Source: Anaerolineales bacterium (GTDB taxonomy: Bacteria > Chloroflexota > Anaerolineae > Anaerolineales > Villigracilaceae). From it: a stretch of 64,000 bases of DNA. The notes below the pieces were generated by a model. That model ran no database searches and was not told the origin of the DNA. It saw only the letters and a program-made list of their open reading frames with translations. Of the stretch, positions 24,907-38,475 are shown piece by piece. The DNA lies in NCBI GenBank assembly GCA_034436335.1, contig DAOTVO010000025.1:28921-92920 (forward strand), given 5' to 3'. The translations under genes and the position numbers were made by a program. How positions within the stretch are numbered: position 1 is the stretch's first letter; each line of letters begins with the position of its first letter.

Positions 24907-25254
24907 TTATGCCTCAGCTTTGTAGAAAATATCTTCGATGTGGACGTTGACGTGCCCGGCGTGGAGGCCGGTCATCTCGGTGATGGCGCGCGCCACCGCC
25001 GCCTGAACCGTGCGGCTGACATCGCGGACATTGACATCACTTTCGAGGACGAGGAAAAGGTCGAGAAATACCTGGCCATCCTCGATGCTCACGCGGACGC
25101 CGTCGCTGCGGTGGCCCAACAGGTCTTTCACCGCCACCCGGACGGGCGCCATGCCGTGCACGCCCTCGACCTCCAGCGCAGACTGGCGGGCGATGGTGAG
25201 CAGCACATCGGGGGTCAGGGTGGTCTTTCCGGGGGAATGATAGTCGCTGGTCAT
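24907..25254 (-). CDS. Asp23/Gls24-family alkaline-shock protein
   Basis: GKTTLTPDVLLTIARQSALEVEGVHGM...V.V.D motif. Preferred start is MTSDY at 25254 rather than 25329. Conserved pairing with nusB. Confidence 0.8.
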   Translation of the reverse strand: MTSDYHSPGKTTLTPDVLLTIARQSALEVEGVHGMAPVRVAVKDLLGHRSDGVRVSIEDGQVFLDLFLVLESDVNVRDVSRTVQAAVARAITEMTGLHAGHVNVHIEDIFYKAEA

Positions 25255-25495
25255 GCTACCTCCTAAAGGGATGGCGAAATTATAACACCTTGCGAAACGC
25301 ACATTGCGTCTCTTGTTCAGGAATAACACTGTCAGCGGAGTTTCGTCACTGCCGGAGGTTTAGTTTGCCTTCAACTAATGGCCTTTTTGGAGCCTGTTTT
25401 GGAGCCTACTGTAGGCTATATTTTAGTTAGTTTGTCTTCCAGGTGTATCGTTCGGTTCAGAATACCAAATTATTTCGACATGAGGAGATTTCTTC

Positions 25496-26062
25496 ATGAA
25501 GCACCATGGTCTTCAGCTACAGAATATGGTTTCTGTCTTAGTAACAGCACTCCTTGTCGTGCAAACGCTACTGCTGATACTTGTGCTTATAAATTTGAAG
25601 GTTATGAGACAGACGATAGCGGCAGGGGCGATATCCCAAAATGATCCATCTGCATCTCTCATCGGCAAACAGGCACCAGATTTTACGTTACCCGATGAAA
25701 AAGGGGATTTGGTGACGCTTTCCGAATATAAAGGTTATCTTGTGTTGTTGGTATTTACATCTCATACTTGTCCCTTTTGCCGTGATATGTACCCTGGCCT
25801 ACGCCAATTTTTAGACAGCAATCCTGATATTCAAGTTATGATTCTATCAACGAACACCACTTTAGAGAATCAAACCTTTCTTGAGGAGTTCAATCTCACC
25901 AACTATGTAAATCTACGCGTGTTGTCCACGACAAGAGAGGTGGTTGAGAAATACCTTATCAAAGGCACGCCCACTTTTGTTGTGATTGACACAGATGGAT
26001 CAATTTTGAATACCGGTTATGCCATAACCGCAGAACAAATATCGGGGCTTATCAGCAAATAG
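25496..26062 (+). CDS. membrane-anchored thioredoxin-fold thiol:disulfide oxidoreductase (TlpA/ResA-like)
   Basis: N-terminal TM helix, GKQAPDFTLPDEKG, active-site CPFC, cis-Pro region GTPTFVVID. First gene of the low-GC island. Confidence 0.85.
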   Translation: MKHHGLQLQNMVSVLVTALLVVQTLLLILVLINLKVMRQTIAAGAISQNDPSASLIGKQAPDFTLPDEKGDLVTLSEYKGYLVLLVFTSHTCPFCRDMYPGLRQFLDSNPDIQVMILSTNTTLENQTFLEEFNLTNYVNLRVLSTTREVVEKYLIKGTPTFVVIDTDGSILNTGYAITAEQISGLISK

Positions 26063-26088
26063 TCAATGACTGAGAAAGGAGAGTGCCA

Positions 26089-26373
26089 ATGACTTCTCTA
26101 CCGTTTTTGCCTTCAAGTAAATCTCTACAGCGTGTTGTCTCTTTAGTGCTGGTGAGCACGCTTGTTGCTCTAACAATATCAGCAGTATTTGCCAGCCCTG
26201 TAGAGGCAGTAACAAATTGTGACCCCTGGCTCGAGAGTGGGCAATGCTGTGACAACCCCTATTGGCCCTTCCACCAGGATTTAAAATACCGGATATGTCA
26301 AAATTGCTGGACTGGAGGATGTTCCGATCCTTGGACAGAGTGGATATGTCCTATCTTCACAATCTGTCCCTAA
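26089..26373 (+). CDS. secreted cysteine/tryptophan-rich peptide precursor (94 aa, 8 Cys)
   Basis: AGGAG 26077-26081 lies 7 nt before ATG 26089. Sec-type signal peptide ending ...AVFASPVEA. Predicted 54-aa mature part VTNCDPWLESGQCCDNPYWPFHQDLKYRICQNCWTGGCSDPWTEWICPIFTICP. Confidence 0.65.
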   Translation: MTSLPFLPSSKSLQRVVSLVLVSTLVALTISAVFASPVEAVTNCDPWLESGQCCDNPYWPFHQDLKYRICQNCWTGGCSDPWTEWICPIFTICP

Positions 26374-26450
26374 TAGCGTATTCCAAGTAAAATGAGTTTT
26401 TCTGCCCAAACTGATAAGCCCCGATTCAGTTTTGTGGAGATGGAATAAAA

Positions 26451-27341
26451 ATGGCCAGAACAAACTCGATTGTGATTAAAGATGTCGTCAAACGCTATCG
26501 AGGTACAGCCCGCGATGCGCTTCATCAAGTTTCATTAACCTGTGATTACGGCGTTTTCGGCCTATTGGGACCAAATGGCGCGGGAAAAACAACCCTCATG
26601 CGCATTCTTGCCACCCTGATTTTACCCACCTCAGGCCGGGTAACTGTGCAAGGCTATGATGTTGTGGATAAACCACATCTGGTGCGTTCGCTGATCGGAT
26701 ATGTGCCTCAAGAATATGCCTTATACTCTCATTTGACAGCGTGGGAGTTTTTAGATTATATGGGAACGTTGAGTGGGGTGCAACGCATCCGTCAGCAAGT
26801 GGAGCGGGTACTTGCCCAAGTAGGACTATTAACCGTCGCCCGTCGACGTCTTAACAATTTCTCAGGAGGCATGAAACAGCGTGTGGTAATTGCTCAAGCA
26901 CTATTACATAGCCCCCAAGTTCTGTTGGTGGACGAACCTACTGCCGGCTTGGACCCCGTTGAACGTGTTAAATTTCGCAACTTGCTGGCTGAGTTGGGGC
27001 GAGAGCGAACAATACTTCTCTCCACTCACATTGTCGAAGATGTTTCTGCTACCTGTAAACAAATGGCTGTTCTCCATGAGGGTTGTATTGCTTACCAAGG
27101 AAGTGTAGAAGATCTGGTTGCCCTCGCTAAAGGAAGAGTATGGAAGGCCACGATACACACAGATGAGTGGAATTATTTCCGTGACGCTCACTACGTTATC
27201 TCTTCTCGACCTGCGGAGCAGTCCAGTCTGATAGAGGTGAGGTTTCTCAAGCGAAATTCTCAACCAACCAGCAATGCAGAACCAGTTTCTCCTACCATCG
27301 AAGACGCCTATTTGTCACTCATTCAGGCAGGGAATTCTTGA
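26451..27341 (+). CDS. ABC transporter ATP-binding protein (ABC-2/DrrA-type)
   Basis: Walker A GPNGAGKT, signature FSGGMKQR, Walker B LLVDEPTAGLD, H-loop STHIVED. Confidence 0.9.
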   Translation: MARTNSIVIKDVVKRYRGTARDALHQVSLTCDYGVFGLLGPNGAGKTTLMRILATLILPTSGRVTVQGYDVVDKPHLVRSLIGYVPQEYALYSHLTAWEFLDYMGTLSGVQRIRQQVERVLAQVGLLTVARRRLNNFSGGMKQRVVIAQALLHSPQVLLVDEPTAGLDPVERVKFRNLLAELGRERTILLSTHIVEDVSATCKQMAVLHEGCIAYQGSVEDLVALAKGRVWKATIHTDEWNYFRDAHYVISSRPAEQSSLIEVRFLKRNSQPTSNAEPVSPTIEDAYLSLIQAGNS

Positions 27342-38030: not shown

Positions 38031-38059
38031 TTGACGGATTCCGCTCCGCCTGATAAACT
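38031..38059 (+). promoter_or_regulatory. sigma70-type promoter for the cold-shock gene (TTGACG-17-TAAACT)
   Basis: -35 at 38031-38036, -10 at 38054-38059. This leaves a ~130-nt 5' UTR, as is common for csp genes. Confidence 0.5.
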
Positions 38060-38195
38060 GCTGTCCAGGTTTGCATGTGTTCATGCTGGAAGAGAATGAC
38101 CGGCCGGAACAAAGCACCAATGTTCAGGCCGTTTTCTTATCCGGCAGATACAAGCAACAATTTCACTCTTTTTTGCAAAAGCAAGGAGAAGTACA

Positions 38196-38405
38196 ATGTC
38201 AGAACGTGTGACCGGCAAGGTCAAATGGTTCAACGCCTCGAAGGGCTACGGCTTCATCGAGCGCGAAGGCGGCCCGGACGTTTTCGTCCATTTCAGCGCA
38301 ATTCAGAACGAGGGCTTCAAAACCCTCAACGAAGGCCAGGAAGTTGAGTTCGAAATCGAACAGGGACCCAAAGGCCTGCAGGCGGCCAAAGTCAAGCCGA
38401 TGTAA
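38196..38405 (+). CDS. csp: cold-shock protein (CspA family)
   Basis: [15 protein letters not shown] (RNP1) and DVFVHFSAI (RNP2). 69 aa. Confidence 0.95.
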
Positions 38406-38423
38406 TTCGAAGAATTGCAAATT

Positions 38424-38456
38424 AAAAATCCCTTCCCGTGCTGGGGAGGGATTTTC
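38424..38456 (+). terminator. intrinsic terminator after csp
   Basis: Stem AATCCCTTCCC/GGGGAGGGATT followed by TTTTC. Preceded by an A-run, so it may act in both directions. Confidence 0.7.
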
Positions 38457-38475
38457 GATTCGGCTAATAAAAAAG

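Follow-up and report, generated by a model that had tools for sequence, protein, structure and literature searches.

A putative Sec-exported, disulfide-rich peptide encoded with a thioredoxin-fold protein and an ABC module in a low-GC cassette of Anaerolineales

What does a secreted peptide of only 54 residues with eight cysteines do in Anaerolineales, and which of the genes around it work with it? The question is raised by a short ORF in the window, by which we mean the whole stretch of 64,000 nucleotides that was analysed. A sequence-only reading had taken its product for the precursor of a knottin- or defensin-like toxin or pheromone; the low-GC island, the ABC module with its pseudo-M1 domain and the RNA helix described below had gone unnoticed in it. 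We give a probability of roughly 0.45, slightly short of even odds, to the reading that the ORF encodes a Sec-dependent, disulfide-rich, bacteriocin-like peptide served by an oxidoreductase of its own and by an ABC module, for immunity or as receptor, that is matched to it in specificity. The features on which the argument is built are collected in Table 1.

Table 1. Features of the peptide cassette, with positions counted from the first nucleotide of the window.
Feature	Position	Strand	Evidence or remark
Conserved five-gene low-GC cassette (island), 4.9 kb	25449..30342	+	GC 0.454 vs flanks 0.62 and 0.61
Membrane-anchored thioredoxin-fold CxxC (CPFC) oxidoreductase, TlpA/ResA/MauD-like	25496..26062	+	Pfam, NCBIfam
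Helix 5' arm, inside the 3' end of the thioredoxin-fold coding sequence	26013..26055	+	perfect 15-nt core 26041-26055
Shine-Dalgarno AGGAG of the peptide gene	26077..26081	+	sequence; 7 nt 5' of ATG 26089
Peptide ORF	26089..26373	+	ATG at 26089, stop codon at 26371-26373
Sec-type leader, 40 aa	26089..26208	+	n-region K11 and R15, 20-aa hydrophobic core, PVEA cleavage motif
Mature 54-aa Cys/Trp-rich domain and stop codon	26209..26373	+	homologue alignments, AF2
Helix 3' arm, intergenic, extending across the ABC ATPase gene's SD and AUG	26411..26454	+	folding, covariation
ABC ATPase, DrrA/GldA/lantibiotic-protection type	26451..27341	+	PF00005, 114 bits
730-aa membrane protein, ~7 TM helices and an extracytoplasmic M1-peptidase-like domain without zinc site	27338..29530	+	AF2, Foldseek
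228-aa polytopic membrane protein, presumed second permease subunit	29579..30265	+	gene order

The precursor is a 94-aa product in which a 40-aa Sec-type leader ending in VEA precedes the Cys/Trp-rich domain (leader MTSLPFLPSSKSLQRVVSLVLVSTLVALTISAVFASPVEA, mature part VTNCDPWLESGQCCDNPYWPFHQDLKYRICQNCWTGGCSDPWTEWICPIFTICP). The Shine-Dalgarno sequence had been described correctly, and homologues share the same start Met, so that a GTG further upstream at 26083 is unneeded as a start. The proposal of a Sec-type precursor encoded by a real gene was borne out: the n-, h- and c-regions are present in the sequence, and the signal peptide was judged from these, from the cleavage motif conserved in the family, and from a helix predicted at residues 11-35 in the model of the precursor. 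A40 is invariant and V38 nearly so in an alignment of 13 sequences, and both are mostly retained in an alignment of 34, which corresponds to an SPase I-type (A/V-x-A) site. We infer that the precursor is exported by the Sec pathway, with a predicted cleavage after VEA. As had been read from the translation, the mature part contains 8 Cys with the spacing C-x8-CC-x15-C-x2-C-x4-C-x8-C-x5-C and 5 Trp, and the leader contains no Cys.

Two of the findings named in advance as grounds for discarding the ORF, namely a Cys pattern without conservation at homologous loci and a chance reading frame, were not encountered. The 34 homologues, which are 26-81% identical to the precursor of the window, keep the reading frame, the V-x-A end of the leader and the Cys scaffold. 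Comparison with the closest homologue gave a dN/dS of 0.48 for the peptide gene, with every Cys and Trp kept; the ratio was ~0.5 in the mature part, so that positive selection is not demonstrated. Within the clade of the window, conservation was higher in the leader (0.68) than in the mature part (0.52). These comparisons indicate that the peptide ORF is a real and conserved gene, far beyond chance. An exhaustive HMMER search of 1.84 billion proteins grouped the family into ~25 representative clusters at 50% identity, hosted by Anaerolineae/Caldilineae-type bins. The cluster lengths are ~85-97 aa, except for truncated calls of 47 and 54 aa, one call of 126 aa and one spurious repeat protein of 1004 aa. 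The family is undescribed and unannotated: the peptide had no match in Pfam, NCBIfam, PADLOC or PDB-sequence searches, and no description of the family was found in literature searches.

The cysteines appear to be used in pairs, as the earlier proposal of up to four disulfides presupposed. Their number is even, either 6 or 8, in 34 of 34 family members. All eight are invariant in the 13 closest sequences, whereas in the set of 34 sequences the core consists of six Cys and the C5/C6 pair is optional. C5 and C6 are missing together in nine clear cases, C1 and C4 are missing together in the member P0030, and extra Cys were gained two at a time in P0041-43. The co-losses imply C1-C4 and C5-C6 disulfides; the likely map would thus comprise four bridges, C1-C4, C5-C6, and C2 and C3 with C7 and C8. 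In the AF2 model the mature part contains only beta strands (block-mean pLDDT 79-89 over residues 41-90), and the mature peptide is predicted to be all-beta. Foldseek with the peptide model, signal helix included, returned no significant match of any kind (best E 0.7). The best small-domain likeness was to a thrombospondin type-1 repeat (7r84/7r85), which was rejected as too weak (E 1-2.7, TM <=0.5 on target). The net charge is -4 for the peptide of the window and ranges from -6 to +4 in the family.

The label defensin-like does not hold for such a peptide. Its cysteines do not follow the CS-alpha-beta motif, a helix packed on a sheet and a cationic charge are both missing from the predicted anionic all-beta domain, and there was no defensin among the Foldseek matches. 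A knottin-like fold gained no support from Foldseek, which returned no knottin, but the joint loss of C1 and C4 is compatible with knottin bridge I-IV of the 6-Cys core. Actifensins and laterosporulins are small ribosomal, unmodified, secreted peptides with invariant Cys and wide variation elsewhere, members of the defensin-like bacteriocin family being ~50% identical; the motif is C-X5-12-C-X3-C-X9-10-C-X4-5-C-X-C with bridges 1-4, 2-5 and 3-6, and ABC transporter genes in the operon may give immunity (PMC6989792). The present peptide resembles these and the Sec-dependent class IId bacteriocins in that it is a small secreted Cys peptide with ABC genes in its operon. It differs from actifensin and laterosporulin in having 8 Cys with another spacing, in a predicted all-beta fold without alpha-helix, and in being anionic instead of cationic. 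Its leader is a Sec signal and not a GA/GG leader, and it has no sequence or fold match to disulfide-rich bacteriocins.

Three other views of the peptide sequence were discarded. The motifs CDPWLE and CSDPWTE, reported as an internal repeat, are both present in the window, but as a repeat they are confined to the window and, in part, its closest relative; an internal duplication is wanting across the 13- and 34-sequence alignments and was rejected as a family feature. A lipoprotein was rejected, because C1 is not preceded by a lipobox and is missing, along with C4, from P0030. A RiPP or quinone-cofactor peptide comparable to the MauA or QhpC small subunits was rejected because the cassette contains no radical-SAM, MauG, protease or other modification gene.

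The gene directly upstream had been read as encoding an extracytoplasmic CxxC oxidoreductase, and the profile searches agreed. Its product is a thioredoxin-fold redoxin that scored above gathering with PF00578 (63.2 bits, cut-off 26) and PF08534 (50.5, cut-off 26.6) and has a CxxC and a cis-Pro (T-P) motif. Both motifs and an N-terminal TM segment are conserved in 13 loci. The best NCBIfam matches, MauD (59.2 vs 188.6) and ResA (56.1 vs 170), remained below the curated cut-offs, and the protein is not an equivalog of PedC_BrcD (18.5 vs 120). Wherever upstream sequence is available, the gene immediately precedes that of the peptide; this holds also for L038 and L036, which lack ABC genes. Dedicated oxidoreductases include PedC/BrcD for pediocin-like bacteriocins, BdbA/BdbB for sublancin, and MauD for the small subunit of methylamine dehydrogenase. 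As in these systems, a thioredoxin-fold CxxC gene here stands beside the gene of a Cys-rich product that is its presumed folding substrate; unlike in these systems, the scores are far below the cut-offs and the other mau, ped and sun genes are absent. We infer that the thioredoxin-fold protein is the dedicated oxidoreductase of the peptide, and its redox direction likewise.

TlpA/ResA-type proteins are usually reductants. With MauD and ResA as the best NCBIfam matches and 8 Cys per 54 residues, the peptide might be a thiol metal-binding or redox peptide that is kept reduced by a TlpA-like reductase; after secretion it would chaperone or scavenge metal, and the ABC system would handle it. This is extremely improbable, as strictly pairwise loss and gain of Cys, always leaving an even number, are consistent with structural disulfides. 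Moreover, conserved His or Met ligands are absent, and the domain is Trp-rich with a predicted compact beta fold.

At most loci of the family an ABC module follows the peptide gene. The ATPase matched TIGR03522, TIGR01188 (212 vs 312) and TIGR03740 (154 vs 309.75) in NCBIfam, each below its cut-off; an anti-phage defence system was rejected, as nothing beyond generic ABC ATPase similarity was found. The 730-aa protein had no match in Pfam or NCBIfam. Its topology, with an outward-facing ectodomain at about residues 296-730, was deduced from the sequence by the positive-inside rule, and its AF2 model is of moderate confidence (pLDDT 62). The top 50 Foldseek matches of this model were all M1 metallopeptidases (E from 4e-9, probability 1.0), and the beta N-domain and thermolysin-like domain of the M1 fold were thereby recognised; the TM-scores are low (0.17-0.36) because of the pLDDT of the model. 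The zinc site of M1 enzymes has the form HExxH-x18-E and their exopeptidase motif is GxMEN. HExxH, HxxEH and GxMEN are absent from all 13 family members, and the loss of both zinc-site and exopeptidase motifs in these members indicates that the ectodomain is a pseudo-peptidase. The gene of the 228-aa protein always comes after that of the 730-aa protein, and its product has no family match. A permease role of the membrane proteins is presumed from gene order alone.

The ABC module is a separable unit. Three-gene modules without a peptide gene were found in L008/L011 and L010/L021-23, as expected for orphan immunity, and in L016 the peptide gene is interrupted by a nonsense codon, with the ABC genes intact. 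Pairs of thioredoxin-fold and peptide genes without a nearby ABC module also occur, one of them within a type III CRISPR-Cas locus (L038). In L035-37, likewise without a nearby ABC module, the peptide gene is followed by a gene for a tandem SBP_bac_1 protein; the 871-aa protein 3' of the peptide gene in L036 was considered as a relative of the 730-aa protein and rejected, since it is unrelated and consists of tandem SBP_bac_1 domains. If the peptide is a toxin, immunity in such cases would have to come from genes at another place.

These neighbourhoods also bear on a non-toxic role, in which the peptide would be an extracellular accessory of the transporter or envelope, either capturing a ligand or binding, in the manner of an inhibitor, to the M1-like domain or to real peptidases, and the cassette would serve physiological export or uptake. 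Protease inhibition is a frequent function of small disulfide-rich proteins. The peptide is anionic, its gene is linked to that of a peptidase-like ectodomain, another clade has the tandem solute-binding protein after the peptide gene, and subtilisin inhibitor and cystatin were among the weak Foldseek matches, at a non-significant E of ~2.4. We nevertheless consider this role unlikely: there are genomes in which the ABC module functions in the absence of the peptide, no inhibitor family was matched significantly by fold or by sequence, and a mobile low-GC island with mosaic exchange would be unusual for a housekeeping function.

LanFEG and the neighbours of lactococcin 972, an ABC ATPase and a large membrane protein, are ABC-type bacteriocin immunity modules. 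Like these, the present cassette has an ATPase and two membrane subunits after the gene of a Sec-exported peptide, and orphan modules exist. Unlike in these, the large subunit has an M1-like ectodomain without a zinc site, and we know of no M1-peptidase-like ectodomain in LanFEG or lactococcin 972 systems. The module does not belong to the LanFEG/ABC-2-type immunity transporters, the likeness being one of architecture. The membrane proteins of the cassette had no match to any ABC-2 membrane family, and the lactococcin 972 families PF09683 (peptide) and TIGR01654 (membrane protein) gave no match even at E up to 1-10.

The cassette is collinear with, and 82% nt-identical to, the metagenome contigs L001-L006, whose flanks are unlike those of the window. 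Its GC content is lower than that of the flanks also in L002-4, L010, L015, L021, L024 and L031. Hence the whole cassette appears to move horizontally. The island boundaries contain no tRNA, integrase or flanking direct repeats. Carriage by phage or plasmid was rejected because no relative was found in viral contigs or plasmids.

When the window was compared with L017, the nt identity was ~85% over the thioredoxin-fold gene and the leader, fell to ~45% in the mature part, and remained at 45-70% along the ABC genes. Between L001 and L017 the identity likewise drops from 91% to 41-46%. The recombination breakpoint is at the leader/mature junction, around position 26200, which shows joint exchange of the mature peptide with the ABC genes. 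In polymorphic toxin/immunity loci the variable effector half recombines together with the adjacent cognate gene or genes (PMC3482391), and Cys-rich effector families show a conserved pre-region, a hypervariable mature part and invariant Cys (PMC4558851). The present locus is like polymorphic toxin loci in its conserved leader half and exchanged variable half, with the breakpoint at the junction between them. It is unlike them in that the product is a tiny single-domain peptide in which no toxin domain is identifiable, and in that the partner is an ABC transporter instead of a small immunity protein. The cassette could represent an unrecognised polymorphic effector system of Chloroflexota, composed of a new-fold peptide with its own thioredoxin-fold protein, a pseudo-M1 ABC recogniser and helix-based operon control; we hold this as a tentative possibility, with the odds clearly against it.

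Joint exchange of the mature peptide and the ABC genes, with the thioredoxin-fold gene and leader conserved, would also be seen if the peptide were a signal. A pherotype-style pheromone would be sensed by the pseudo-M1 ectodomain of the ABC protein as its specific receptor, and communication groups would be set by ligand and receptor varying together, as they do in polymorphic pheromone/receptor loci. A dead peptidase domain is suited to ligand binding, an anionic peptide is not AMP-like, and two loci, L028 and L034, have ECF sigma genes in divergent orientation upstream. The cassette, however, contains no kinase, response regulator, RRNPP-type receptor or other output domain, and no sigma or regulator gene adjoins it in the window. 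ABC modules and peptides each occur also without the other, and a four-disulfide domain of 54 aa would be large for a bacterial pheromone. Such signalling is therefore quite improbable. Either a toxin or a pheromone role, as first proposed, is plausible for the peptide, and the co-exchange with the ABC genes lends indirect support.

A long-range RNA helix of 25-31 bp brackets the peptide cistron. The extended helix was present in both the MFE and the centroid folds, with ~355 nt looped out. Covariation was assessed across 12 loci: 84.5% of the cells were paired, vs 36-41% in slid controls, and compensatory changes were observed in 21 of the 31 helix pairs, a value reached by none of 500 shuffles. 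The pairing probability exceeded 0.9 in all 12 loci folded; in L031 the pairing was weaker and shifted 3'. The 3' arm is conserved amid otherwise diverged sequence. A comparable helix was not found in three examined loci without a downstream ABC gene, and Rfam 15 gave no covariance-model match at E up to 1 in the region 25200-26600. In a nine-locus alignment of the arms, G-U pairs outnumbered A-C mismatches 26 to 8, which points to RNA of the + strand.

Since the arms bracket the peptide gene exactly and the locus is mosaic, one might suppose that the inverted repeat functions as DNA, being a site of recombination or inversion that marks a swappable cassette. This is very unlikely. The breakpoint lies at the leader/mature junction and not at the core of the 5' arm, the orientation of the peptide gene is identical in all loci, and there is no recombinase gene nearby. 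In addition, the excess of G-U pairs is meaningful only for + strand RNA, and the three loci without a downstream ABC gene have no comparable repeat.

The RNA helix probably either couples ABC expression to the thioredoxin-fold gene or serves as an RNase III-type processing site. In the former case, pairing of the end of the thioredoxin-fold gene with the leader of the ABC ATPase gene would tie ABC expression to translation of the thioredoxin-fold gene, through unmasking of the ABC ribosome-binding site; this site is masked by the helix in only some loci. Long-range RNA pairing controls a downstream cistron in the MS2 coat-replicase 'Min Jou' interaction, and stems around the 16S and 23S rRNA flank units that are excised by RNase III. 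Like the Min Jou interaction, the present helix joins upstream coding sequence to the initiation region of a gene far downstream, and like the rRNA stems it is long enough to be an RNase III substrate. It differs in its location in a cellular operon, in enclosing the whole peptide cistron and in belonging to no Rfam family.

We favour the bacteriocin-like reading, which would work as follows. The precursor would be exported by Sec and cleaved after VEA to give an all-beta, Trp-rich peptide of ~54 residues locked by four disulfides, with the membrane-anchored thioredoxin-fold protein serving, on the outer membrane face, as its dedicated oxidoreductase or isomerase. The released peptide would be a receptor-specific bacteriocin-like effector against related Chloroflexota. 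The ABC module, consisting of the ATPase, the 7-TM permease with the dead M1-like ectodomain and the second permease, would be its matched partner, probably an immunity pump or a sequestering receptor, with the pseudo-peptidase domain as the part that recognises the cognate peptide. The specificity half, that is, the mature peptide and the ABC genes, would be swapped by recombination at the leader/mature junction.

Several lines of evidence were counted for the bacteriocin-like reading: the conservation of the gene, the adjacency of the thioredoxin-fold gene, the paired Cys, the separable ABC module, its co-exchange with the peptide, horizontal transfer, the M1-like ectodomain without zinc motifs, the lantibiotic-protection-like ATPase and the covarying helix. 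Counted against it were the anionic to neutral charge of the peptide, in which most membrane-active bacteriocins differ, and the absence from the cassette of a C39 peptidase, a regulator and any small immunity protein of the canonical kind. An ABC module is adjacent to, and co-exchanged with, the mature peptide, as would be expected of linked immunity, yet pairs of thioredoxin-fold and peptide genes occur without one.

Filamentous Chloroflexota are abundant in sludge, sediments and hot springs, and to our knowledge antagonism and communication among them are almost unstudied. The locus offers a compact, testable cassette of five genes for this purpose. Its peptide is a new disulfide-rich scaffold without a structural relative in the PDB, and the peptidase fold minus its zinc site on an ABC permease is probably a peptide-recognition module. 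The mosaic variants of the window type and the L017 type form a natural set with which swaps can test specificity directly. The helix is a clean case of covariation between a coding sequence and an intergenic region 355 nt apart, and would be a good model for the way in which bacteria set expression ratios within an operon.

The product of the peptide gene is very probably (roughly 0.85-0.9) a real peptide, secreted and held by disulfides, that represents a new family, has a dedicated thioredoxin-fold partner, and belongs to a horizontally mobile cassette. The sequence-only reading had described an ORF with an ATG at 26089, in which a leader ending in SPVEA is followed by 54 residues that include 8 Cys and 5 Trp, and we recovered this ORF of 94 aa, its composition, and the Cys spacing C-x8-CC-x15-C-x2-C-x4-C-x8-C-x5-C as given. 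The motifs CDPWLE and CSDPWTE, which had been regarded as an internal repeat, are both present in the peptide of the window but were not kept in homologue alignments, so that the repeat is not a conserved feature. The upstream gene, reported as an oxidoreductase, does encode a thioredoxin-fold protein (trx) with CPFC and an N-terminal membrane anchor. When compared with its closest homologue, the peptide gene showed a dN/dS of 0.48, from 13 synonymous against 24 non-synonymous differences, and no Cys or Trp was replaced; the neighbouring genes gave 0.14-0.30.

Features of the cassette and of the rest of the window (window positions)
Feature	Position	Strand	Remark
Five-gene block	25449-30342		cassette
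trx gene	25496-26062		thioredoxin fold
Peptide gene SD AGGAG	26077-26081	+	upstream of ATG 26089
Peptide gene	26089-26373		94 aa
ATPase gene	26451-27341		ABC module
730-aa protein gene	27338-29530		ABC module
228-aa protein gene	29579-30265		ABC module
Perfect 15-nt inverted repeat	26041-26055 and 26411-26425		brackets peptide cistron
Extended helix (predicted fold)	26013-26055 paired with 26411-26454	+	3' end of trx coding sequence with ABC ATPase leader
Perfect palindrome	30445-30472		14+14 nt, GC-rich
cspA thermoregulator match	38052-38457	+	Rfam RF01766
Cold-shock protein gene	38196-38405		69 aa

In a first search, a single homologue with 81% identity was returned, from six metagenome contigs, and the same five genes are present on each of these (6/6). 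With the 730-aa neighbour as query, 13 protein clusters and 21 loci from genome bins and metagenomes were obtained, and a peptide gene of the same type lay upstream in nine distinct loci. Only ~25 peptide clusters emerged from a profile search covering 5.8 billion proteins together with an exhaustive HMMER search over 1.84 billion representatives. All but four of these are ~85-97 aa long, the outliers being truncated gene calls of 47 and 54 aa, one 126-aa call, and one spurious 1004-aa repeat protein. No member is named beyond "hypothetical protein", and searches of Pfam, NCBIfam, and PDB sequences with the peptide gave no match. The named bins containing the family are Anaerolineaceae, Anaerolineae, Caldilineaceae, Ca. 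Mesolinea, and one KSB1 bin.

The 13 closest sequences share all eight Cys, CCD, P60, and Q63 without exception. The mature part contains either 6 or 8 Cys in every member of a 34-sequence alignment, and C5 and C6 (numbered by order in the mature part) are jointly absent in nine clear cases. The family member P0030 jointly lacks C1 and C4, and P0041-43 gained two additional Cys each. Because the cysteines are lost and gained in pairs, this pattern argues for structural disulfides in the mature peptide and gives a partial putative map, in which C1 would pair with C4, C5 with C6, and C2/C3 with C7/C8. That the cysteines belong instead to a metal-binding or redox peptide appears highly improbable. 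Most members have a leader terminating in V/A-x-A, compatible with cleavage by signal peptidase I. AlphaFold2 with the 13-sequence alignment predicted that residues 11-35 of the leader form a helix and that the mature part contains beta strands; the block-mean pLDDT was 79-89 across residues 41-90. Foldseek of this model against the PDB found nothing significant (best E 0.7); the thrombospondin type-1 repeat was the sole small domain with any, non-significant, resemblance.

The trx gene lies directly upstream of the peptide gene in all loci having upstream sequence, and its CxxC, cis-Pro motif, and TM anchor are conserved. Its best curated matches, MauD and ResA, are both far under cut-offs. 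In the locus L038 (5333-6291), a trx-peptide pair occurs without ABC genes and without the long-range helix described below, within a type III CRISPR-Cas locus (neighbours Cas6, RAMP, Csx19). In L036 the pair is followed by a tandem solute-binding protein; in this 6-Cys clade (L035, 401-2941; L036, 535-3150) an 846-871-aa lipoprotein-like protein with two SBP_bac_1 domains takes the place of the ABC module. Two distant loci (L028, 10-603; L034, 1208-1765; both on the - strand) have an ECF-type sigma-70 gene upstream of the cassette in divergent orientation, that of L034 being followed by a 403-aa gene. These may be regulators; none adjoins the window cassette.

The ATPase of the ABC module is of the DrrA/GldA/lantibiotic-protection type. 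In L004/L012 (840-1729) its gene is split by an apparent frameshift into calls of 55 and 231 aa, on one contig that otherwise shares 99.8% identity with its siblings. The 730-aa protein has ~seven TM helices, and from the strongly positive loop (TAPRLEGKKAQRCNR) before the last helix we read its 440-aa C-terminal domain as probably lying outside the cell. Its AlphaFold model (pLDDT 62) matched M1 zinc metallopeptidases (Foldseek E 4e-9, probability 1.0), and HExxH or GxMEN was present in 0 of 13 family members, indicating that the domain is M1-like and unable to coordinate zinc as M1 enzymes do. The domain also contains four Cys that are invariant or nearly so (C300, C431, C595, C600), which would agree with a position outside the cytoplasm. 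Some loci have the three ABC genes but neither trx nor the peptide gene (L008/L011, L010/L021-23). In L016 (140-415) the peptide gene contains an in-frame TAG (…ECQSW*KAG…) at the Tyr position of L017, and the downstream ABC genes are intact; possible explanations are loss of the peptide with the transporter kept, or an assembly error. A peptide that served this transporter as a non-toxic accessory or inhibitor partner is an unlikely alternative.

The window and L017 share ~85% nucleotide identity across trx and leader, which drops to ~45% at the start of the mature peptide and then runs at 45-70% through the ABC genes. Between L001 and L017 the identity declines there from 91% to 41-46%. This is a sharp recombination breakpoint at the leader/mature junction (window ~26200, L017 ~990, L001 ~780), and the mature peptide is thus exchanged jointly with the ABC genes, separately from trx and leader. 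Conservation within the window's clade is 0.68 for the leader versus 0.52 for the mature part. Polymorphic toxin/immunity loci are known for such a pattern (PMC3482391), and Cys-rich effector families combine a conserved pre-region with a hypervariable mature part (PMC4558851). Polymorphism of a pheromone and its receptor would be expected to produce the same pattern as toxin/immunity exchange; we consider such a pair quite unlikely here.

The inverted repeat around the peptide cistron belongs to the extended helix, which is present in both MFE and centroid structures (z = -3.6) and whose 3' arm spans the SD and AUG of the ABC ATPase gene in the predicted fold. The bracket was found in 12/12 loci with ABC genes after the peptide gene (weaker and shifted 3' in L031), with a pairing probability > 0.9 in all loci folded; three loci examined without a downstream ABC gene had no comparable helix, and the helix had no match in Rfam. 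The arm sequences vary by clade (ATCGGGGCTTATCAG; TAGTGGAACTTACC; TAGTGGAGCTGATAA; GCGCGGAGGGG), and the 3' arm of L017 is a conserved patch amid diverged sequence. In the 12-sequence arms alignment, 84.5% of cells were paired versus 36-41% with the partner slid, and compensatory changes occurred in 21 of 31 pairs, values reached by none of 500 shuffles; the alignment was anchored on complementarity, which favours pairing, whereas the between-clade compensatory changes are independent of anchoring. The nine-locus arms alignment contained 26 G-U pairs versus 8 A-C mismatches, and this excess points to a helix acting as RNA of the + strand. The ABC SD and AUG lie within the helix in the window, L001, L034, L031, and L027, and outside it in L015, L007, and L028. 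Covariation across the 12 loci is strong. The conserved duplex of 25-31 bp would fit either of two mechanisms. It may be melted by ribosomes that complete trx, which would expose the ABC start and result in long-range translational coupling, or RNase III may cut it and so release the peptide mRNA from the remainder.

The five-gene block is a 4.9-kb island of 45% GC within 62% GC DNA. It is 82% nucleotide-identical to L001-L006, whose flanks differ from those of the window and from each other, and the cassette GC is below that of the host DNA in many loci. No relative was found in the viral contigs and plasmids searched, and no tRNA, integrase, or flanking repeat in the surroundings of the island. 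The palindrome abuts its right end and precedes a T-run on the - strand; transcription of the gene for Lit (lipoprotein transacylase) probably terminates there. Elsewhere in the window, the RF01766 match (78.5 bits, slightly over the gathering score) overlaps the cold-shock protein gene.

As to function, we tentatively favour, at a little under even odds, a bacteriocin-like effector with ABC-type immunity or recognition. This reading is based on how the genes are arranged, on the joint exchange of mature peptide and ABC genes, on ABC modules that occur as orphans, on the L016 nonsense allele, and on cassette mobility; the anionic charge (net -4 for the window peptide, mostly negative to neutral in the family) and the trx-peptide pairs lacking the ABC module count against it. 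The closest known systems resemble the locus in architecture only: actifensins, laterosporulins (PMC6989792), and Sec-dependent class IId among disulfide-rich unmodified bacteriocins, PedC/BrcD, Bdb, and MauD among dedicated oxidoreductases, and LanFEG and the lactococcin 972 operon among ABC immunity modules. By their defining features the locus is a member of none of these kinds, and its new elements are the fold of the peptide, an ABC permease that carries a pseudo-M1 ectodomain, and the RNA helix.
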